From contig OZ024742.1 of assembly GCA_964016885.1 (NCBI GenBank), positions 152,024,001 through 152,088,000 on the forward strand: a DNA stretch of 64,000 nt, read 5' to 3'. Both the position numbers and the translations under genes were made by a program. This stretch comes from Eledone cirrhosa (Eukaryota). Below, in pieces: positions 4,137 through 62,129 of this stretch; position 1 is the stretch's first letter; each line of letters opens with the position of its first letter. The notes below the pieces were generated by a model. The model searched no databases. It saw only the letters and a program-made list of their open reading frames with translations, and was not told the DNA's origin.

Positions 4137-5008
4137 ATATATATGTGTATATATATATATATGTATATATATATATGTATATATATATGTATATTTATAT
4201 GTATATATATATATATATGTATATATATATGTATATGTGTGTATATGTATATGTATATATATGTATATATATATGTGTATATGTATATATGTATATATAT
4301 ATACGTGTATATATATGTGTATATATGTATATGTATATGTATATATATATGTATATATATATATGTGTATATGTATATATGTATATATATATACGTGTAT
4401 ATATATGTGTATATATATGCATATATATATATGTATATTAACAAGAGGAATTCCAACTTTGTCTGATTTACTCGTTTTATTTACAATCCTTTAAAATTTA
4501 TAATGGTATTATAATCAAATAGTATGATAGAATATTAAATTCTAAGTGTTAATTGAACAAGTACTTTCATGCTTTCGCAATCTTAAGCTTCATAATATGT
4601 GGTGAAAATTGCAAACTTGACTGTCACCACATATTATGAACCTGAAGATTGCGAAAGCCTGAAAGTACTTGTTCAATTAACACTTAGAATTTAATATTCT
4701 ATCATACTATTTCATTATAATACCATTATAAATTTTAAAGGATTGTAAATAAAACGGGTAAATCAGACAAAGTTGGAATTCCTCTTATTAATATAATCTT
4801 CTATACACAATCATACACACCTGTGTATATTTATCTATCTCTCTCTATATATATGTATATATATATATGGATATATGTATATATATATATGTGTATACAT
4901 ATATGTATATATATATATATGTGTGTATATATATGTGTATATATATATATGTGTATATGTATATATATATATGTGTATATATATATATATGTATATATAT
5001 GTATATGT

Positions 5009-5040
<32 letters not shown>

Positions 5041-5181
5041 GTATATGTATATATATATATATGTATATATATATGTATATGTATATATATATATATGTAT
5101 ATATATATGTATATATATATATATATGTATATATATATGTATATGTATATATATATGTATATATATATGTATATATATATG

Positions 5182-5212
<31 letters not shown>

Positions 5213-5261
5213 GTATATATATATGTATATATATATGTATATATATATGTAATTATATATG

Positions 5262-5292
<31 letters not shown>

Positions 5293-5350
5293 GTATATAT
5301 ATATATGTATATATATATATATGTATATATATATGTATATATATATATGA

Positions 5351-5402
<52 letters not shown>

Positions 5403-5413
5403 CTATATGTATG

Positions 5414-5480
<67 letters not shown>

Positions 5481-5600
5481 GTATATGTATATATATGTAT
5501 ATATATATGTATATATATGTATATATATGTATATATATATGTATATATATGTATATATATATGTATATATATGTATATATATATGTATATATATGTATAT

Positions 5601-5652
<52 letters not shown>

Positions 5653-5725
5653 GTATATATATATATGTATATATATGTATATATATGTATATATACATAT
5701 ATATACATATATATGTATATATATG

Positions 5726-5757
<32 letters not shown>

Positions 5758-5944
5758 CATATACATATATATATATACATATATATACATATATATATAC
5801 ATATATATACATATATATATACATATATATACATATATATATACATATATATACATATATATACATATATATATACATATATATACATATACATATATAT
5901 ATATACATATATATATACATATATATACATATATATACATATAT
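3960..5944. repeat. Degenerate (TA)n/(TATG)/(TACA) microsatellite arrays, interrupted by the 4436-4835 element
   Basis: Seen directly. Similar arrays at 1967-2207, 7485-8460, 9180-9885, 14337-17590, 22951-24050 and many shorter tracts. Confidence 0.95.
4436..4835. mobile_element. Palindromic (fold-back) HHR-bearing element, family A, copy 1
   Basis: Arms ~4436-4604 and ~4625-4795 are reverse complements. The plus arm has an HHR at 4637-4675 (TGAAC-CTGAAGA-TTGC gaaa GCCT-GAAA-GTAC-TT-GTTCA); the mirror HHR at 4554-4592 has a mutated core. Confidence 0.85.
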
Positions 5945-7480
5945 CTTTTTCGTGATTGCCCTTTGAGGAGCTTCAAGTTTCATGATACTTTGTTTCGTGT
6001 GGGGAGACCACAGTGGACAACAGTATTCAAGGTGTGGTCGGGCGAAAGTAGAGAAGAGAAGGATAATGGTGCGGGAATCTCTCGACTGGAAGGTTCTGAG
6101 GATCCAGGAACACATTCTGCGGGCCATGTCAACTTTGCTGCTTATATGCGTGGTCCAGCTTATGTTGCTGTCCACGGTTACTCCCAAGTCTCTGATGTTG
6201 TTAGATGCCACGAGAGTTTCCCCGGAGGGAAGGGAGTACGGGAGTTTCAGAGCATCCTCTTTTCCAAAGTGGATCAGTTCGAATTTGTCTTCGTTCAGTA
6301 ACATGTTGTTCTTTTCTGCCCATTGGGTAACAGCCAGTAGGTCTGACTGAAGGCTTATCCGGTCATCCACGCCATTGATGACCTTTTCGAGCTTGGAATC
6401 ATCAGCGAAAATTTTAATGTTGCTGTGTTTGATGATGTCAGTGATGTCATTAATATAGATGATGAAGAGAAGTGGGCCCAACACAGTGCCTTGTGGGACC
6501 CCACTACTGACTTTGGCTGGGCTTGATTTGACTGCCTCAACTACAACATGTTGGGTTCTGTTTGACAGGAAGCTCTTGATCCACTGCTGCAGCTTTCCAG
6601 TGACACCAATATTGGACAGCTTTCGCAGTAGAATGTTATGATCAACCCTGTCAAAGGCCTTGCTGAAATCAAGGTAGATAACATCAGTGTTGGAACCCTC
6701 TCCCAAGGCTCTCAAAATGTCATCAAAGTGATGCAGTAGCTGCGTCAGGCAATCCCTTCCATTACGGAATCCATGCTGGTTGGAGTTCAGCATATTGTTA
6801 CTCTCAAGGAAGTGGGTCATTCGCGATCTCACCACTCGCTCAAATACCTTAATGATATGAGAGGTGAGTGAGATTGGACGGTAATTCACGGCAAGGGATT
6901 TGTTTCCCTTTTTGAAAACTGGGACAACAGACTGGGATAGAAGGTTTTCTGGCACATATCCAGCATCCAGTGAGTTCCGCCACAGATTGGTAAGAGGAGA
7001 TGCAAGTTGGCGTTGACACGCCTTCAAGACACAAGCAGGGAACCTATCGGGACATACTGCTGAATTATGCTTGATTTCCTTTATTGCCGCCAAGACATCA
7101 GGGGCGCCAAACGTTATGTCTGATAAGGTGTAATGGGGAGTAACATCGCCGATACAGCCCAGATCGGCCATATCAGGATTGCTGAACACAGAGCAGTATT
7201 GTTTCTGCAGTATCTCACCCATGGTTTTAGCATTGTCTTGAAGAGTGCCATTTTCATCAATTAGAGGGCCAACAGTAGAGCCAGTGATTTTGTGTTTTTT
7301 TGCAAATGAAAAGAACACTTTGGGATTGAGTTTGATCTTCTCAATGGCCCAGGCCTCTTCAGCTCTTCTCTGATTGTTGATGAGGGACATTATGTTGTTT
7401 TGGAGGTTATGTTTTTTAATCTCTAGTGATGAAATGGCAGTCAAGTTGATGTGTTGCTGCTGACAGTATTTCAGCTTGTT
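5945..7480 (-). mobile_element. CR1-clade LINE fragment encoding an uninterrupted reverse transcriptase domain
   Basis: Real part of ORF 4835..7444: [73 protein letters not shown]. No endonuclease domain. Both ends run into (TA)n. Confidence 0.92.
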
Positions 7481-7551
7481 GATTTATATATATACATATA
7501 TTGATTATATATATACATATATATATATACATATATTGATTATATATATAC

Positions 7552-18573: not shown

Positions 18574-18618
18574 AACGGTGCTGATGATAGCTAACAAGCT
18601 TGAAACTAGTACATCGTT
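18574..18618 (+). ncRNA. Type-I hammerhead, family E
   Basis: AACGGTG-CTGATGA-TAGC taacaa GCTT-GAAA-CTAG-TA-CATCGTT: 7-bp stem I, palindromic CTAG stem III, GUA site. Confidence 0.88.
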
Positions 18619-37582: not shown

Positions 37583-37659
37583 TATATAAATATAGTAATA
37601 ATAATAAATGTGAAGACTAAAATCAAAAGAGGGCTCGATAAGGATATATATATATATCA

Positions 37660-38842
37660 AAGCCATTCGACAAATTGAGAGTAACGTCGAGATAATTAAC
37701 GACCGAGAGGTTGACCTCAACCTGTATGAAGAGGTTGAAGCCTTTAAAGAAGGCTTTGAGTTCTTTTCTGAACCTGCTGCAAGAGCGTGGACCGCACTTT
37801 GTCATGGTCAAATGACCGTCATCGTGGTACAAACCACCGCCCACATTGGGGAAATTCTTCCTTGATAGAGAAAAGAAGGAAAAGGCCGAATCGCTGGCGC
37901 CCATACTCACGTCGAATGTGGTACTATTAGATTTTTTATCCAAATAGAGTCGTCGAAATTAATCACCAACTTACGGGCATTGAGGATGACATCAACTTCG
38001 AAATCCTTAACCACCGTGAGCGTTTTAGCTAAATTGATAGCTCTAAGTAGAAGTGGTAAAGTGATGGAGGAGTAGCAGTTATTGATGTCGAATTGGATAA
38101 AACAGCAATGTTCCTTGTTGCATATGCCATTGAACCAATGAATCACGGCGAAAGAATTATTCCACAATGCAAGAGGGGCCAAGCTTCTAATTTCAGGTAT
38201 AATTCTATCGAAAATCCTTTTACTAAGTCTACCTAAATCATACTTCGCAGTGTTAATTAGCCGAAAAGATGGGTTGTTCGCGAAATTGGGTTTGTGATAC
38301 TTCAGGGTAAAGTGGGGAGAAATAGGGTCCAGAGGTTTAGTCCTGTTCTGGATGTTGAGTTCAGAAGTGATTTTAAACCCAGCATCGTTGATGTCATTAA
38401 TGACACTCCGATTGGTTTTCCGGTAATCCTTAGTTACAGCATTATGTAGAAGATGATGGTAAGTACTGTGCTCCACTTGATATAGATTGCCAGTTTTGTC
38501 GGAGTGGACGTGCACGGCATTAGAATCGTTAATAGAACGAATTCTATTCTTCAGGACCTGCTGGAAGGAATTGCTGCTATTCCGAAATTTGATACTCCGT
38601 ATGAGTTCCAAGGCATCGTTTTCGAATGGTAGCAATGCTGGGTTATTCATAGGGTTATTATAACTTTTACACCTAAATTTATCCTGTTTATTGTCCGCTT
38701 TTTCCTGGTTATCGAAATAAAAGGCACGCCAACCCAACCTTTTAAGGAACGAATCCGTTTTCTGTATCAGAAGTTTTAGATATGTCTTCCTGCTAGGTAC
38801 GGGTATGTTCTTCGTAGAAATATTCAGGTGTTTCTTCTGCAT
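37660..38842 (-). pseudogene. Penelope-like element RT (N-terminal part, frameshifted, 3'-truncated)
   Basis: [67 protein letters not shown]. Confidence 0.88.
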
Positions 38843-38996
38843 GATGAATATAAGTCAATAGAGTGCTCAACTGAGGGAGCCAAATATTAATAATAATAAA
38901 TGTGAAGAGTAAAATCCAAAGAGGGCTTGATAAGGATAAATATATATAAAGTATATAAGGACCCTAGAGCAAATATTTATTAAAATAACAGATTAA

Positions 38997-39047
38997 AGTT
39001 TAAGCAAAGAGTCGCTGCTTTCACCCATAACGGGATCTTCTGAAACT
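38997..39047 (-). ncRNA. Hammerhead with CAGAAGA core, family B pLTR
   Basis: Minus strand: AGTTT-CAGAAGA-TCCC gttat GGGT-GAAA-GCA..TGC-TT-AAACT. It lies between the upstream GIY-YIG copy and the RT start (tandem PLE junction). Confidence 0.7.
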
Positions 39048-40520
39048 AAAAAAATCAATCTGTGAACGCAGAAGTAAATATTTCGAAAAATGTTCCAACC
39101 GAAGGAAAACAGGAAGACGATACTTTGGTTCGTAAAGACGTTCCCTGGCAATGAACGAAAAAAAGCGAAGATAATACAATACGTCGTTATGAGAACAATT
39201 ACACGCAAAGACAAAACCACGTTTATTGTGTAAATGAAGTCGTAGACTAATATTCTATTTAGGAAACCGAATGATTCTCAGCTTCATAATTAAGAATAAT
39301 GTAAATAAATTAGTAGAACAAAAATGACAGAGGTTATTAAAATCAATAATAATTAAATATATACATACACGTGCATACGCGAAAACGCCCGCCATGCATG
39401 CATATACATCGACGTACACATACATAAACCCGCGGGACACAAGTACCCGCACAGATACGAACGTATACAACAAATACACATAAAAAAATATATAAACGCA
39501 TATAAATACGTATATAACGCACGCACACACATACCTACAGGTAAATACACATACGTTCACCAAACGTACGTCAACCAAAACACAAAGTACACATATACAC
39601 ACCGTACATACGTGCAAACACTCATACACGCATACACACACAAACACAAAATACACATATACACATAACCATATACACATATACCAGTATATATAATATA
39701 ATATTTACACCTATAATAAATACAAGCATATATACGTACGAGAAAGTATAAGTACCTTCACAAAACATACGGGCAAGGTATACTTACCTATACAAATAAG
39801 TAATGGTATAAACATAATATATACTTAGCTATCACACCAGGACGTAAATTATCCGCGTAATGTTCATACTATCCGTTAGGGTATAATGTGGGGCTGTAAT
39901 ACAGGAAAGTTTTATGCAATTTGTGTTTACAAGCCGAAATTGCATCAGATATTTTTGTTTAAGATGTGGTCATTGGCGTAGAGTATTTCCAGGGCTTCAG
40001 CGCCGCAAAGAAAGCATGGTCTTTTATTTCCGTTATACGATCTAGCCCTAGCTAGAATCTCCCAGTGTAACCTATATTGGGTGTGGTTGTCTTTTATACT
40101 CCAGATATAAGCTGAACGTCACGTCATATTCCTTCTTAAAGGGTTAAGAAAAGAATGGGTGTCCATGTAAAGACGCTGCTTGAATCTACATAACCCTATG
40201 TAGGCTTTACGGGACGTGGCTGTTTCGACCTTACATTTGTAGACAATGTTAGTGGAGAGGCATTTCCCGGATAGAGGGCAGTCAACCCAATTCTTAGAAT
40301 TACAGTTAATACTAGCTACATGCTTGTGCGTGTGCCCAGGGCTAGGTAATTTAGCTAAATTTGAGCATGTGCAAGGTTAGGAGTCGTGGAGTAAGATATT
40401 TTAATGGTATTTCTATTAAAAATATAATTATATTTATGTGCTGAGGGGAAATGCTTCTTAATATGGGAGACAAAGATCTTAGCTAATGGTGTGGCTACCT
40501 CCATATTATATGGTGGGTTA

Positions 40521-46275: not shown

Positions 46276-46546
46276 AATATATGAACAATCGTCTGGTTGT
46301 GGAACCAACCAACTAACCGGAAATTTATAAATTCTTAAATTTATAAATTTAATTTATGATAAATTGAAGTGAAAGCGGCTGGTGCGTGTGTTTCTTATTG
46401 GCAACATGACCCTCCCAAAAAATAACAATATCGGTTTCAACACACGTTTTCAGATAAATAATCTTTCTAAACAAATTCAGAAACGAAATATAGAAATATA
46501 TATATATATATAAATGAAAGTTATAGAAAGTATTGTAATATATATA

Positions 46547-49500
46547 TAACGAAGGAAATGTGGTAAGGAACAAGATGGACCATAACGCACCAAAGTACTC
46601 AATACTTAGGGTAGTAGAGTGGGTAATAGGAACAAGTAGGACCCCGAATAGCCGAACTTCTAAGGGGGTAATTCCATATTTGGTAAAAGTGATAAGCTCA
46701 AGTTCTTTCACCCGCACCATGCGAAAACACAACATTGACTTCTCCACCAAGAACATCCCAGTTCCACCGAGAAAACACTACCTCCGGATGCTCACGCCCA
46801 AAATCGACCTCTTTGCGAAAAGACTAAGAAGGAGAACTTTTTTCTACGACAGATATTGCGACAATCAGGACTTCGATACCAAGGGGAGATTCGGATTTAA
46901 TACCTACAAATCTCCCCCTCCGAACCCTATGCTCTCACCCTTCGAGCATGACCTTTCCCAACTAGTCAAGAGCATTAAATTCAAACCCAGACACAACAGA
47001 TTCCTACAAAAACTCCGTAGCAACTTAACAGAGTATGAACACACCAATGACATCATAGTGCACTCGGATAAAACTGGTAACGTCTACTTCGTCAACCCCG
47101 ACAGATACCACACACTGATCAGGAGCAGCCTAAACTCCACCTATAAAAAGGCAAACCACTCAAGCATCGAGGACATAAATCGAGATGGACAACAAATTAC
47201 CTCCAGCCTCGGGGTCGCCGACCGCACGGAACCCCTAGACCCACGGACTCCCTACTTCACACTGAAGGACCACAAATCCGATTTCGACCGTAAAATAATT
47301 ATCAGGCTTATAAACCCAACGAAGTCCGACATAGGGAGAATCAGTAAAAACATCCTAGACTGCGTTATACCAAAAGTTAAGCAAAACACCAGACTTAGCC
47401 TATGGGTCCACTCCCGGGAAGTAATCTCATGGTTCAGCAATATGGAGGACAAACGAGACACAAAATTCATCCAGTTTGACATAGAGAGTTACTATGCTTC
47501 AATTACCTTACCGCTCCTTACGGCCGCCTTGGACTTTGCCGAGACACTTGCACCTATCACCGACCAGGAAATAAATATAATCCTCCACGCCAGGAAGACA
47601 GTCCTACTTTTCGACAACTCCAAATGGATAAAGAGAGCTCCCGACTCCCCCTTCGAGGTCAGTATGGGCGGGACGGATTCGGTTGAGGTCACAGATCTTA
47701 TAGGATTATTCCTCCTAGTTAAACTCACCGATATGTTTCCTGCATTCGGCGGTGGATTGTACCGTGATGATGGGCTCCTTACCCTTAAAGGGTACAACCC
47801 CAGTAGTACAGACCGGGTCCGTAAACAATTAATCAGCTTCTTCCACGACTGGGGATTTAAAATAACCCTACAAACGTCCCTAACCCGAGTAAACTTCCTG
47901 GACGTTACACTTGTCCTCGATAATGATCTGTACTACCCATACAGGAAACCCAACGACAACCTGCACTACATCCACCGCCGGTCGAACCACCCTAGAAACA
48001 TCTCCAATAACCTGGTTAAAAAGATCTCCCTCCGCATATCTCGTTTGTCCGCTAATGAGCAGATATTCGAGGAACATGTGCCTTATTACAACCAGGCCCT
48101 CAAACGGAGTGGCTTCCGGGAGGAAATATCCTATTATCCAGCTTCCATTAGTGGAATCAGCACGCGACACCGCCGCTCACGCAACGTAACATTGTTCAAT
48201 CCTCCCCACAACGCCGAGGTGACAACACCTTTCGGGAAAATCTTCTTTAGGCTCATCGAAAAACACTTCCCACTACAACACCGCTACCACAACATAATCA
48301 ACAAAAATACCACCAAACTCTCCTACAGCACCACACCTAACTTTGCATAAAACATCGTCTCCTCTAACAACAAAAAAGTCAACCCCTATGGAAGAAACCT
48401 AGATAGCAGTGGATAGTCGACCAGGAGGTGTAACTGTCCTGATGGATCCATTTGCCCCTCGACAACAGATGCAGAGATCGTAATATGATCTACCAGTGCA
48501 ACGTGAGGACGAACACCTCCAACAAAGCTTATATAGGATTAACCGCTTGTGACTTCAAGACCCGGCTATACCAACACAGACATACTTTCCGAGACCCGGC
48601 CCGGGGTCACGCCACTACACTTTCGGGCCACATCTGGGACCTCAAAGATAAGAATATAACCTATAATCTCACTTGGAGCTTATTGTCCAGAGCTAACTCT
48701 TACACGGGATGACACCGTCCGTGTAACTTATGCTCGGAGGAAATATTACAAATGCTGTTTTCGACGGACCAACTCCTAAACAAAAAAGACGAATTGGTAA
48801 CTGCATGCAAACACAGATTGCGTAGGACTTACCTCGCCCTCAAACCCCACAATGACCGGGGGTGGGGGAGGAGGTGGGGGGTTAGACAAGGGCTGAAACA
48901 CCCCACTTGCCGACTTTGTAGTGGTTAACCCCTGCTTACAAAGGTAGACGTAACTTTTTTGTATGGATTTTCTTATATATTTTTTATCGTTTCCTCTATA
49001 TTACTTTCTTCCCCCATCCCTTCCTAGTCCTTCCACTCCAGATCTTTTTTGTTGTCATTCTTTTCACCTTGTCGCCCACCCCGAGGCAGCCCTTCGGTCC
49101 TCTGTAGCCTCAGTACCCCCCCCCCCCCTTATTCTATGATAGAATTGACCGATCCCGCATTTTATACCAGATGTGTTAGACCCAAGATACTTGCTTTCTT
49201 CTCTGATTGCTGCGCAATTTCCGTGATTTCTAGATTTCTTAGTGGTATTTCTGCTTTAGTTTCTCGTATATCAGTATTTCAATTTTTTTTTTGGGGGGGG
49301 GGGGGGGGGGGTATTCTGAATTAATTTTTCGTATTAGTTTTTCATATATATCGTACAAGCTTTTATATAGTTTGTATTAGAATTTATGTATTATAGTAGT
49401 ACTCATATATATCGTATTGGTATTCATGTTTCGGGATTCTGAATTAATATTTCGTATTAGTTTCGGGCCTCTGAATTATTATTTCGTATTAGTTTTTCTT

Positions 49501-50118
49501 TTTTTAGTATTTTGGCCCCCTACTTGTTGACCTGTCATTGTAAGATATATTTGGCCAATTACTACTAACTCATAAAAGTCTTTCACTACAATCTCGTATT
49601 TAGTGTTCCGTCCCACCTATTAAACGTTTTTGTAGCTTACCAGTACCAGTGAGAGATTTGATGATTGTGGAAGGTGAATAGTAACCAGAAATTGTGTTTT
49701 TTTTTAAAAATATTTTTTATATTTTTTATATTTTTCTATATATTTACTCCATATAGATTTAATTATTGTTTCGACATCCTCCCTCCTCCCCTTCTCTAGT
49801 ATACTTCTTTCAACCTCCTATCCTTTGATTCTGCTGTAGTTGTCACATTCAACGCTCGACAGGGTTTCCTCCACTCCCTCTCCCTCTTTCTTCTACTGGC
49901 AAGTTCAGCTACCCCTACCTTCTACAGAATGCCATGATAGAATCATGTGTCTCAACAACAAACTTTTGACCAATCCTTGTTACAATCACTTTTACCAAAT
50001 ATGGAATTCCCCCCTGAGGAGTTCAGCTATTCATTTAACAGGATAAAAATGTTCATTTAGTCCACAATTAGCCGTCAAAACGGCTTGAGCTCAGCCGTCA
50101 GGGTCCTACTCGTTGCTA
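46547..50118 (+). mobile_element. Near full-length Penelope-like retroelement (Nematis-like by motifs) with inverted 5' pLTR and 3' pLTR (family U)
   Basis: The inverted pLTR at 46547-46692 mirrors 49985-50118 where they overlap. RT and GIY-YIG lie in between. The 3' pLTR HHR at 50010-50103 reads CCCC-CTGAGGA-..-AAAA-CGGC..GCCG-TC-AGGG. Confidence 0.88.
46719..48850 (+). pseudogene. PLE RT plus GIY-YIG ORF (RT uninterrupted to 48350; stops and a frameshift afterwards)
   Basis: MRKHNIDFSTKNIP, HSDKTGNVY, FIQFDIESYYASI, FEVSMGGTDS, GGLYRDDGL, FLDVTL, FNPP, SYSTTPN*, CNC..CP, IYQC..AYIGLTACDFKTRLYQH, CNLCSEE, CKH. Confidence 0.9.
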
Positions 50119-50147
50119 TATATATTTATATATATATATATATATAT

Positions 50148-51630
50148 TTTACTCTTGATTTGGCCAGAGAATTATATTTCCAGATACCTTTTAAACGTAA
50201 CTTTCCGTATTTATTACTGTTATGAGATATTGTTTGTTATTTAAGTATCACTTCTCTGTTTTTAGCCTAAGAAACTATCTATATGCGTGTGTAATTAATA
50301 CATGCATACATTTATTTTAAAAACATTAATTGAGTTCTTAACACGCAGGATTAAAATTGTTTTTTTTTAAATAACTAATTAACCCACGTGTATATTATTT
50401 TACTTTCTTGTGTTTCGCGATTGCCTCCCTTTTCCGCTTCGTGACGCTGTGAAATTCCTCAGTCTAAAGACTGCTGGAATTTCAAATTTGGCGGTCATTA
50501 TGATGCGTGAAGGGACGACTTAGCTGACACGAAAAATAACTGCGGTAAGAAATGTTTTCTCACATCAAAGTTTGATGGGAATCCACTGATGATTTATAAG
50601 TGCCCACCTACATGTGTTCTTACATAAAAATATGTAGGCTTCTACATAAACCGGAAACATTCTCCCAACTTGTAGAAAACTTATAATGAAACAATTGTTT
50701 GGAAAGAGAGATATATTTTAATTTTAATTATATCTCATATAAAATAATACAACTGGCTTTCCACAAAATACATATAGTTAGCACCCCAAACACAAAATTG
50801 GGATTATACTAACGTATATCCTAATGTTTGTTGAGTGAGATGGTAGCCAGTCAGAGTTTAGCTTAACACTTTCTCTGTTATTATATTAAATAGTTTACTC
50901 TTGATTTGGCCAGATAATTATATTTCCAGATACCTTTTAAACGTAACTTTCCGTATTTATTACTGTTATGAGATATTGTTTGTTATTTAGGTATCACTTC
51001 TCTGTTTTTAGCCTAAGAAAATATCTATATGCGTGTGTAATTAATACATGCATACATATATTTAAAAAAAATTAATTGAGTTCTTAACACGCAGGATTAA
51101 AATTGTTTTTTTAAAAGAACTAATTAACCCACGTGTATATTATTTTACTTTCTTGTGTTTCGCGATTGCCTCCCTTTTCCGCTTCGTGACGCTGTGAAAT
51201 TCCTCAGTCTAAAGACTGCTGGAATTTCAAATTTGGCGGTCATTATGATGCGTGAACGGACGACTTAGCTGACACGAAAAATAACTGCGGTAAGAAATGT
51301 TTTCTTACATCAAAGTTTGATGGGCATCCACTGATGATTTATAAGTGCCCACCTACATGTGTTCTTACATAAAAATACGTAGGCTTCTACATAAAGCGGA
51401 AACATTCTCCCAACTTGTAGAAAACTTATAATGAAACAATTGTTTGGAAAGAGAGATATATTTTAATTTTAATTATATCTCATATAAAATAATACAACTG
51501 GCTTTCCACAAAATACATATAGTTAGCACCCAAAACACAAAATTGGGATTATACTAACGTATATCCTAATGTTTGTTGAGTGAGATGATAGCCAGTCAGA
51601 GTTTAGCTTAAAGCTTTCTCTGTTATTGTA

Positions 51631-51634
<4 letters not shown>
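50148..51634 (+). mobile_element. Head-to-tail dimer of a ~745-bp non-coding monomer, one HHR per unit, family J (retrozyme-like)
   Basis: 50148-50893 is nearly identical to 50894-51634. HHRs at 50582-50703 and 51327-51448: TCCA-CTGATGA-TTTATAAGT...ACTTATAAT-GAAA-CAATTG-TT-TGGA. Flanked by (TA)n. Confidence 0.85.
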
Positions 51635-55063
<3,429 letters not shown>

Positions 55064-59342: not shown

Positions 59343-59588
59343 TTCAAAAGGAATATAAATTAAAATAAGGAAAGAATGTTACATAAATGTAATGTTCCAC
59401 TATGGTGTCCTGGGTATATCAATTTTCTGCCATAGTGGAGCAGTATTCTTCTGTCGAAGCTGTATTTTGTCAGATCTGCCTATGGGTAACAAGATGGCCG
59501 CCAATGGACATATTTACCTTACTAATTAGATGTCGAACATCTGTTGTTAGGGTCTCGGAAGTTGAGCTATTTACTGTTAGAAGTCGCC

Positions 59589-62129
59589 ATGTTGAGCAAG
59601 CAGGAACTCAGGGTGTCACTTAAGTCCATACTTATCCCGGACAGGAAGACATACCTCAAACCCCTAATACAGAGTGTCAACTCTTTCATCCGAAGAATAC
59701 GATGGAAAGCCTTCCACTTTGACCGTGCGGGTGCTGCTTACGCCGGAAGTACAGCAAACAGATATGGATTTACCATCTGCAAGAACCCCCCACACAACAT
59801 CCTGCTGGACCGTTTTGAGAAAGATCTATTTAACTTCGTCAGGAGCATTAAATTCAAAAAGCATTATAAACAGAAGAATAATTTCCACATAAAATTAGCA
59901 ACAACTATAAAAAAATTTAAAGATCGCCACCTCTTACATGTTATGTCTGACAAAACCAAAAATCTATACACCATGACTCCTGAAACTTACAACTCTTTCC
60001 TTCTTAAGGAACTTAATAAAAACTACAAAAAAAAACTATACGCTCCAGTGTAAACTTACTTGACAGAAAAGCCCAGGCTTTGGTTAAGGACTTGCATCTG
60101 GATAGATTTACCGACCCTTATGTACCAACAACCCAAAGGTTTTCTGTCAAGGATCATAAGCGAAACTTTATAGAGAACCCATCTATTAGACTTATAAGCC
60201 CAACCACATCCGACTTGAGTCGTATCAGTAAGAACATACTTGATAGGATCATCCCTTGGCTACGAGATGATATCACCAACAAGTTGTGGTCCAACTCCGG
60301 CCAAGTCATTATATGGTTCTCCGATCTAAGGTCCAAAGAATCTATGAGGTTCATCCAATTTGACATTGACAGCAATTACGCTTCAATAACCCGGAACTGC
60401 TCAACAAAGCATTAACCCTAGCCAGCACCAACTCTGACATAACCAATAATGAGATTGACATCATACTTATGGCTAGGCAGACATCATTGAATTCAACGGA
60501 ACACTCTGGACTAGAAAGGACAGAGGAGACAACTTTAACATCACGATGGGCTAAAGTGACTCTGCGCAAATCACCGATTTAGTTGGAATTTACCTATTAC
60601 ATAACATCAGAGCCGAAATTCAACCCTTGCAAGGCGGAATATACAGGGACGACGCCCTATTTGCAGTCCACAATTGCACTAATCGAGGCATTGACTTGCT
60701 CAAAAAACAATTACATAGATTCTTTAAAAATAACGGTCTCTCTATCACCATCGAGCCGAACCATAAAGTAGTAAACTTCCTAGAAGTTACTCTGGATCTT
60801 AACAATAACCTATATTACCCTTACCATAAACCAGGTGAAATACTTACATATATTAGCCCACACTCTAACCATCCATCGGCAGTCATCAGAGCAGTAATCA
60901 AATCTATCTTGTATAGGATCTCCATGCTATCAGAAAATGAGGAGATATTTATAAACCATGCGGCATATTATAATAAGGCTCTTTCTGAATCTGGTTATGA
61001 ACAGTCCAGTTACTACATACCTAAATGCCATAACACAGCAATTCACCACAACCATCATAAACTTAACACTAGAACTAGAAATACCTTAGCATATAGCAAA
61101 ATTCGCCGGAACTTTAGCACCTATGCAGGGAACCTTAATGATGGCAGTGGCCTGCTTCCCACTCTAAGTAGCAAACTAAAAATCAAAACTAGAATTGGAA
61201 TGAGCAATGGGATGACAAATAACAAATGCCCAAGTAATAATAACCCTATGAAGGCCCCCTACTAACACCACTAGAACCCCTAGAAGGAATAGGCCTAGAA
61301 ATCTAGAAATGTCACCTGGCTTAACCCCCCCATTCTCATCTAATCTAGCCACTAATATCCCTAAACGCTTCTTCTCTATCCTATCTAAACATTTCCCCCC
61401 ACAACCATAGATATTACAAACTCTTTAATAAAAATAACATTAAAATCTCATTCTCCACAACACCTAACCTAGCTAGCAATATCGCATTCAGTAACCATCA
61501 TAAACTAAGACAGTATAACTCCCACACCGCGGTACCACCCCCCATCAAATACACCACGCCACTACACCAATACTTACTCTAGTAGCACACCTCCCCCATC
61601 TAATCATTCTAGCACTGACCAACCGCTTAGGTTAAACAACCCTACTCTCACTAACCGCAGAAGTAACTGCAACTGCCGTTACCCTAATGCATGCCCACTA
61701 AATGTACATTGCCTGAAACCCAACATAGTCTATAGGTGCACGGTTAAAACTGCTTCGCATACCAGCTCCTATATCGGGTCTACCTCTAACCCTTTTAAGG
61801 TACGCTATAACGCGCACTCTTTTTCCATTCGATACCCTAACAACAGATGTTCGACATCTCTAACTAGGCTCATTAAAAAGCTTAAATTAACCAACATTTA
61901 ACACTCACTAACATGGGATATCATGGCTAGGGCCCAACCGTTCAATGGACGAAGAAAATCTTGTAACATCTGTCTTACCGAAGCATATTACATAACTCTT
62001 TCACGACCTCTACCGATTAACGATAGAACGGAGGTAACTATTAGCTGTCAACATCGAAGGGCTAATTCCTTCGCCAAAAGAATATTTGACCCAACAAAGT
62101 CACCTAGCCCCATTTTTACTTGTAGCTAA
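59589..62129 (+). pseudogene. PLE RT plus GIY-YIG, frameshifted
   Basis: SLKSILIPDRKTY, MSDKTKNLY, FIQFDIDSNYASI, GGIYRDDALF, VNFLEVTLDL, CNC..CPL, YIGST, CNICLTE, CQH. Confidence 0.9.

Follow-up and report, generated by a model that had tools for sequence, protein, structure and literature searches.

Two units and their hammerheads

The window is the whole 64,000-nt stretch of Eledone cirrhosa DNA that was analysed. Two head-to-tail units lie within it, filling positions 50148-51634 (units at 50148-50893 and 50894-51634) with a period of 745 nt and an identity of 97.4%, so that 18 substitutions and one indel separate them. A (TA)n run flanks the array on each side and conceals any target-site duplication. 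Both units contain the string UCCA-CUGAUGA...GAAA-CAAUUG-UU-UGGA, with cuts predicted after 50699 and 51444, the first of them 552 nt from the start of the array. The features on which the argument depends are as follows.

50148-50893, + strand: unit 1, complete, 745-746 nt (from self-comparison and family matches)
50894-51634, + strand: unit 2, which ends at the fixed 3' end of the family
50582-50703, + strand: hammerhead 1, type I, whole
50582-50585/50700-50703, + strand: stem I of hammerhead 1
50586-50592, + strand: core of hammerhead 1
50594-50600/50680-50686, + strand: stem II of hammerhead 1, with branched domain
50688-50691 and 50697-50699, + strand: GAAA and GUU of hammerhead 1; predicted cut 50699/50700
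50691-50698, + strand: stem III palindrome ACAATTGT; second copy at 51436-51443
51327-51448, + strand: hammerhead 2; predicted cut 51444/51445
50700-51444, + strand: putative cut-to-cut RNA monomer, 745 nt
50470-50496, + strand: nearly invariant 27-nt motif, ~200-230 nt before the cut; also at 51215-51241
50858-50903, + strand: unit end and unit-unit junction, likely start of reverse transcription
51599-51634, + strand: terminal copy of the end motif, joined to (TA)n
50117-50147, no strand: left (TA)n target; a broken Hydra-like Penelope copy (~46539-50116) has its tail here
51634-51687, no strand: right (TA)n target
37635-39100, - strand: broken copy of family d, candidate mobilising Penelope element, outside the dimer

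The array has no ORF of 100 aa or more, the longest ATG frame in the window's subfamily is 33 aa, and tblastn found no remnant of an ORF in the units (best E 1.8). A preliminary description of this DNA, which had reported two near-identical units bounded by (TA)n, an intact hammerhead motif in each, an array that starts about 550 nt before the cleavage site and a monomer with no ORF, was right on each of these counts. GC content is 35% over the last 485 nt of the unit. Folded as a circle, the monomer reaches -169.1 kcal/mol, as against -136.7 +/- 5.5 for 30 dinucleotide shuffles; the minus strand is likewise low, at -167.7. Contigs from four runs of unspecified kind span the monomer, but bear on neither its expression nor its ends or strand.

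It is too much to call these hammerheads canonical, as the same description did. The core is standard, but the helices depart from the usual pattern. Stem I is 4 bp long; stem II, of 7 bp, has a U.U pair at its base and opens into a branched domain of 95 nt; stem III is the palindrome ACAAUUGU; the cleavage triplet is GUU; and a scan of the window against Rfam gave no match at gathering score. The marks of the canonical metazoan type I ribozyme (helix I of ~6 bp, helix II of ~4 bp with loop-loop contact, G10.1-C11.1) are absent. What is found is the architecture of the paired hammerheads of Penelope-like elements (PLEs), that is, a short helix I, a longer helix II and a palindromic helix III that is kept complementary.

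Palindromy has been kept while the sequence has changed. At 220 anchored sites, GAAACAATTGTTTGGA stands in 147, ACGATCGT in 34 (the two commonest other forms) and ACGGCCGT in 2. The stem III palindrome varies by subfamily between AATT, GATC and GGCC, and all three forms are palindromic; ACGGCCGT differs in both central bases, and these would be unable to pair within one lone hairpin. Changes in the core, seen in 76 cores that the core pattern did not pick, are commonest at the free position 7. To judge from these sites, the hammerhead is under selection, core and palindrome both being constrained. The lowest-energy fold predicted for a monomer is an inactive form in which the core pairs with the palindrome. 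Two units joined are predicted to reach -50.4 kcal/mol, compared with -47.0 for a pair of monomers in the inactive lowest-energy fold and -39.2 for a pair in the active one, and on this modelling the hammerhead likely acts in pairs, two units being joined through their stem III palindromes.

A dispersed family with one 3' end

The 3.0-Gb assembly yields 2,889 candidates for the 745-nt unit. Exact matching finds the core 1,111 times, the 3' region 1,246 times, the end 2,346 times and the unit junction 373 times, against 0 times for each control, and 98 of the first 100 junction matches run on into another unit. There are therefore thousands of dispersed copies, and the dimer is no unique tandem duplication. 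Two samples were taken, set A from the first 80 places of the core-match list and set B from the places of the first 100 matches to the 3' motif (88 loci analysed, one inverted arm excluded). Together they comprise 127 loci, all on one contig (C1), and 5' ends were called against a reference for each subfamily, not against the window unit alone.

Copies end alike and begin differently. The 3' end is one common site, ~190 nt past the predicted cut and within (TA)n, in 122 of the 127 copies (in set A, 77 of 80 3' ends adjoin a TA run), and the 5' ends vary. The preliminary description had taken the start of the array to be permuted, an idea that survives for the 5' ends and fails for the 3' end, and the phase of the array is therefore not a random permutation. 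The pattern is as expected if reverse transcription is target-primed and has an internal start. In the window's copy the 5' end happened to fall at the AT-rich junction of units, which is why it is a dimer of almost exact length. Multimers, which the same description had called for, are there: 37 of the 127 copies are longer than one unit, besides the 373 junction matches, and 15 of the 127 have two cut sites. None in sets A and B exceeds ~1.6 kb; the longest dispersed copy found has 3.7 units. Inverted 5' arms, a frequent feature of PLE-mobilised elements, occur in 3 of the 127, and the legend to Figure 2 of PMC8557442 has the inverted arm as optional.

At least nine subfamilies, 3-21% apart, can be told from one another, and all keep the tandem form. 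Their units measure 700-760 nt or ~990 nt, the latter because the first 257 nt are duplicated. The family is thus dispersed and multicopy, below 50% GC and non-coding, with no pair of LTRs around an internal region, with two or more consecutive units that each bear a complete type I hammerhead, and with a unit length in the reported range, all as in the non-LTR retrozymes of metazoans. With elements mobilised by PLEs it shares a fixed 3' end, a variable 5' end, partial tandems and 3' likeness to an autonomous family.

A satellite of the same family lies on another contig (G000:C2:312267610-312330900; L202, L258 and L291-L295). It runs for 63 kb, with ~80 units of 747 and 997 nt, 76 cut-site matches and a partial four-unit higher order, and finishes with the family's usual 3' end and (TA)n. 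From its sequence, local amplification is at work as well. The array is of mixed unit length and 3.4-5.7% from the nearest dispersed unit, so the window's subfamily did not come from it.

Penelope elements and a candidate enzyme

Could the units instead be pLTR fragments of the ordinary kind, derived from an autonomous Penelope element and duplicated locally here? The hammerhead has PLE-type proportions (PMC4209133), the window is full of Penelope remains, and at one locus (L211) a Penelope ORF stands 257 nt upstream of the unit with no (TA)n run between. That gap is not homologous to the unit, however, and L211 is the one exception: in 217 locus records (~180 places) a piece of Penelope ORF lies on the same strand upstream in 20 and downstream in 10, separated from the unit by simple repeat in all the others, and in none of the 217 is an ORF continuous with the unit. 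An ORF with reverse transcriptase (RT) and GIY-YIG between repeats, as in an autonomous PLE, was not found. Nor do the junctions, which lead from unit to unit, the tblastn result or the tandem form kept by all of at least nine subfamilies fit pLTR fragments. The idea is largely refuted by the unit-to-unit junctions and the want of a fused ORF, and is very improbable indeed. A non-autonomous hammerhead element that inserts in the Penelope manner, as the preliminary description had it, is supported by the ORF-less units, the dispersed multimers and the 3' ends joined to (TA)n.

The end of the unit points to a candidate enzyme in another element. Over its last 35 nt the unit matches, at 83%, the end of a Hydra-like Penelope family, d, and the match is terminal in both elements. 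The anchored end score is 53, compared with 19.4 +/- 5.5 for shuffles, none of 5,000 of which reaches it, and with 12 for a neighbouring family, a. The retrieved DNA has 2,303 ends adjacent to (TA)n. A score of at least 30 is reached by 158 from the retrozyme family, by 29 from d and by 16 more, most of them fragments of one or the other, so that d is the sole other family in this collection with such an end. No closer autonomous partner was present among these ends or among 30 loci with the end pattern.

Family d has a unit of ~3.26 kb, a 3' region of 1 kb (L141-L146), many open frames of 713 aa and 35,612 exact matches to its end. The 713-aa frame has RWK-like, DKT and CxCX5C motifs and the target is (TA)n, as in the Hydra clade, an assignment based on motifs. 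No hammerhead was detected in four full copies of d by a relaxed scan, which a more divergent motif could escape; d also forms partial tandems, and a hammerhead circle is thus unnecessary for such an anatomy. The protein of d likely copies the RNA of the retrozyme, a partnership suggested by ~45 nt of likeness. Since the likeness is confined to those ~45 nt, the partner could instead be a Penelope family outside the sample.

Further broken Penelope copies lie in the window at 46539-50116, 52898-54232 and 59526-61901. Two are Hydra-like, and one broken copy, with Pfam matches to RT and GIY-YIG, lies inside inverted arms of 415 nt. At 4835-7483 on the - strand, a frame that reads in translation as a LINE-like reverse transcriptase runs into a (TA)n expansion.

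Routes from RNA to DNA

Then there is the matter of where copies begin. Of the 88 5' ends in set B, 18 fall at 0 to +19 after the predicted cut and one at -20 to -1. The stopping rate at the cut is 0.93 per 100 nt where the mean is 0.22, a departure from uniform stopping with p=1e-8. Such ends yield copies of ~160-190 nt and ~870-930 nt. A separate set, of junctions, gives 4 of 21 stops at +8 to +11 and one at -1. Within 48 nt past the cut, stops make up 16 of the 81 first passes and 12 of the 25 second ones. The higher rate on the second pass has p=0.009 in the two unbiased sets and p=0.09 (16/46 against 16/81) with the junction set included. The simplest reading of the pile-up is run-off where the ribozyme has cut the RNA, followed by trimming. 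It suggests that cut linear RNAs serve as templates and that cleavage occurs in the animal.

A second cluster of 5' ends, at -185 to -138, has no cut site and follows the 27-nt motif. This motif (50470-50496 in unit 1) is the most conserved stretch outside the ribozyme, with 1,270 exact matches in the genome; it can form a G.U-rich hairpin, and a cluster of copy 5' ends lies 15-65 nt downstream. It is putatively a promoter or structural element, with a possible start of transcription downstream, and bears some resemblance to E2F/CHR promoter words.

An explanation of the pile-up that needs no cutting in vivo is that the enzyme pauses at folded RNA, or that copies are joined through TA microhomology. 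ATATAT does occur at +11 in two subfamilies, a hairpin occupies +7 to +40, and the cluster after the 27-nt motif is similarly one-sided. Either cause can contribute to the pile-up. Half of the 18 ends, however, lie at 0 to +10, ahead of the ATATAT, with one exactly at 0, so microhomology is not the whole cause; and a further ATATAT, near -88, has 4 stops in the 20-nt bin that holds it. If the enzyme paused at the hairpin, ends would presumably be found near +40, and the explanation leaves the constraint on core and palindrome unaccounted for. Taken as the whole account it is unlikely.

The units of a multimer resemble one another more than chance would have it. Lineage markers are present in both of two adjacent units in 127 instances, in the upstream unit only in 29 and in the downstream only in 27, an agreement of 69% compared with 13% for permuted partners (maximum 26% in 200). 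Over 59 pairs, alleles private to the locus are shared 45 times in 18,597 nt between adjacent units and 9 times in 18,479 nt between nearest units of other loci. (Both analyses employed a strict duplicate filter that removed 13 loci, some probably distinct.) Local duplication can produce shared alleles and explains some cases, and units 1 and 2 of one locus (L006) have no differences in 476 nt. No scar of RNA editing is visible, with A>G changes at 109 and T>C at 114, and 5 and 6 among shared alleles. The cut is crossed without insertion in 208 of 211 crossings; the other three have private insertions exactly there, of 8 nt (L054), 1 nt (L181) and 2 nt (L184), compared with ~0.2 expected (Poisson p ~0.001), a weak hint that they may be the trace of a joining event. 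The concordant markers, together with copies of up to 3.7 units, indicate that multimers are regenerated from one monomer, whether by a circle or by end-to-end jumps.

How much of this a circle explains may now be judged. The preliminary description had every copy arise from a 745-nt circular RNA read round and round by a Penelope enzyme. The long copies with concordant markers, the private alleles that adjacent units have in common and the crossings free of insertions all agree with it, and circles have been shown for retrozymes of coral, mussel and axolotl (PMC7229834). A seamless circle, though, has no end at the cut, where first and second passes nevertheless stop, and neither unbiased set has a copy above ~1.6 kb. 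The pile-up indicates linear cut templates for many copies, and the circle as the account of all of them, which would be saved if a scar left by ligation made the enzyme stall, is unlikely. At the other extreme there is no circle, the templates are linear multimers partly cut, and copies longer than a unit come from end-to-end jumps or from read-through of long arrays. The run-off pattern in both passes, the private insertions at the cut, the partial tandems of the hammerhead-less d and the existence of a 63-kb array speak for this. If no monomer were re-read, though, the upstream units and the downstream ones would be expected to fall into different lineages, which is not observed, and the long array, by its mixed lengths and its divergence, did not give rise to the window's subfamily. 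I consider it a serious contender with somewhat less than an even chance.

I propose, with the observed family, its anatomy, ends, conservation and shared end motif as the foundation, that the element is probably a high-copy, non-coding, non-LTR retrozyme with a fixed 3' end and paired cutting, rewritten into DNA by a Hydra-like Penelope protein. The + strand would be transcribed; a lone hammerhead, predicted to be inactive, would pair with a second through stem III, and the two would then cut. The protein of d would recognise the shared end motif and nick (TA)n, and reverse transcription would start at the fixed internal site ~190 nt past the cut. Where the RNA has been cut the enzyme would run off, leaving copies of ~190 and ~930 nt, and uncut sites would be read through. 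Copies of 1.5-3.7 units would come from re-reading one monomer, with a ligated circle having about an even chance of being the template and jumps from end to end a lesser one, or else, rather improbably, from long read-through transcripts. Unequal exchange, acting locally, would occasionally build a satellite.

A narrower form of this proposal, possible and put forward tentatively, is that the element is a ribozyme parasite of a Penelope that has no ribozyme. It would have borrowed no more than the last 35-45 nt of that Penelope, its hammerhead would block itself and be fired by pairing, its multimers would be regenerated from a cut monomer, and its copies would record cleavage in vivo and copying by circle or jump.

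Neither the class of element nor the size of its unit is new. Metazoan non-LTR retrozymes have units of 170-400 nt in the accessible text of Cervera and de la Pena (2020, PMC7229834), smaller than the 700-1,000 nt seen here, but a preprint (Li, Clavereau and Pollet 2026, 10.64898/2026.07.22.740005) gives 51-972 bp, with a mean of 650 bp in ray-finned fishes. The preliminary description's undescribed large size is accordingly not borne out. Like those retrozymes, the family has AT-rich tandem units that lack an ORF and carry a type I hammerhead apiece, in monomers, dimers and long arrays, and a link to PLEs has been proposed for them, an origin also argued in the preprint, where one of nine Xenopus dimers cut in vitro. 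Unlike them, it has a 95-nt branched domain II and a 4-bp stem I, and, as far as the available parts of the two sources go, neither mentions a 3' end that is fixed, copies that begin at the cut or a partner lacking a hammerhead. The present family is known from genomic sequence, its cleavage being predicted and its circle proposed. The literature on octopus and cephalopod hammerhead elements gave no description of the family, although the supplementary tables of the preprint may hold relatives, and that on copy ends at a hammerhead cut gave no report.

It is the copy ends at the cut and the swaps of palindrome that are informative. What the hammerhead does in Penelope-type transposition is an open question: the circle route to copies longer than a unit is a proposal (PMC4209133 and PMC7229834), and the sole in vitro system, the Poseidon element PAc of the green anole, found cleavage dispensable for insertion, with uncut RNA dominant and, in the text available, no reads ending at the cut (Frangieh et al. 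2024, PMC11167929). PAc is reverse transcribed from a fixed internal site on AT-rich targets, and the present family resembles it in having its fixed end apart from the ribozyme cut, which an internal start like that of PAc would explain; it differs in that copy ends cluster at the cut. Genomic signs of copying from cut RNA, natural swaps of palindrome and a named, intact candidate enzyme are all available in this family, and the route of transposition is thereby directly testable.

Hydra-clade Penelope elements have hammerheads and are under 3 kb in the portion of Craig et al. (2021, PMC8557442) that treats them; by comparison with these and with non-autonomous Chlamys elements such as MRC1, d is longer and no hammerhead was found in it. 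The hammerheads of PLEs (Cervera and de la Pena 2014, PMC4209133) have a helix I of 4-5 bp, a helix II of 7-8 bp, a palindromic helix III and activity as dimers. The present hammerheads are like them in their short helix I, 7-bp helix II and palindromic helix III, and unlike them, within the available text, in having no ORF between repeats, U.U in place of G10.1-C11.1 in the window's subfamily, and a palindrome that takes three forms, all complementary, within the same family. A U.U at the base of stem II is also found in HHR_Amex2 of axolotl (PMC7229834), where stem III has 2 bp and a tetraloop. The window has other hammerhead-like motifs with a palindromic stem III, at 18581, 34864 and 43545, the last of which may carry a domain II of 89 nt.
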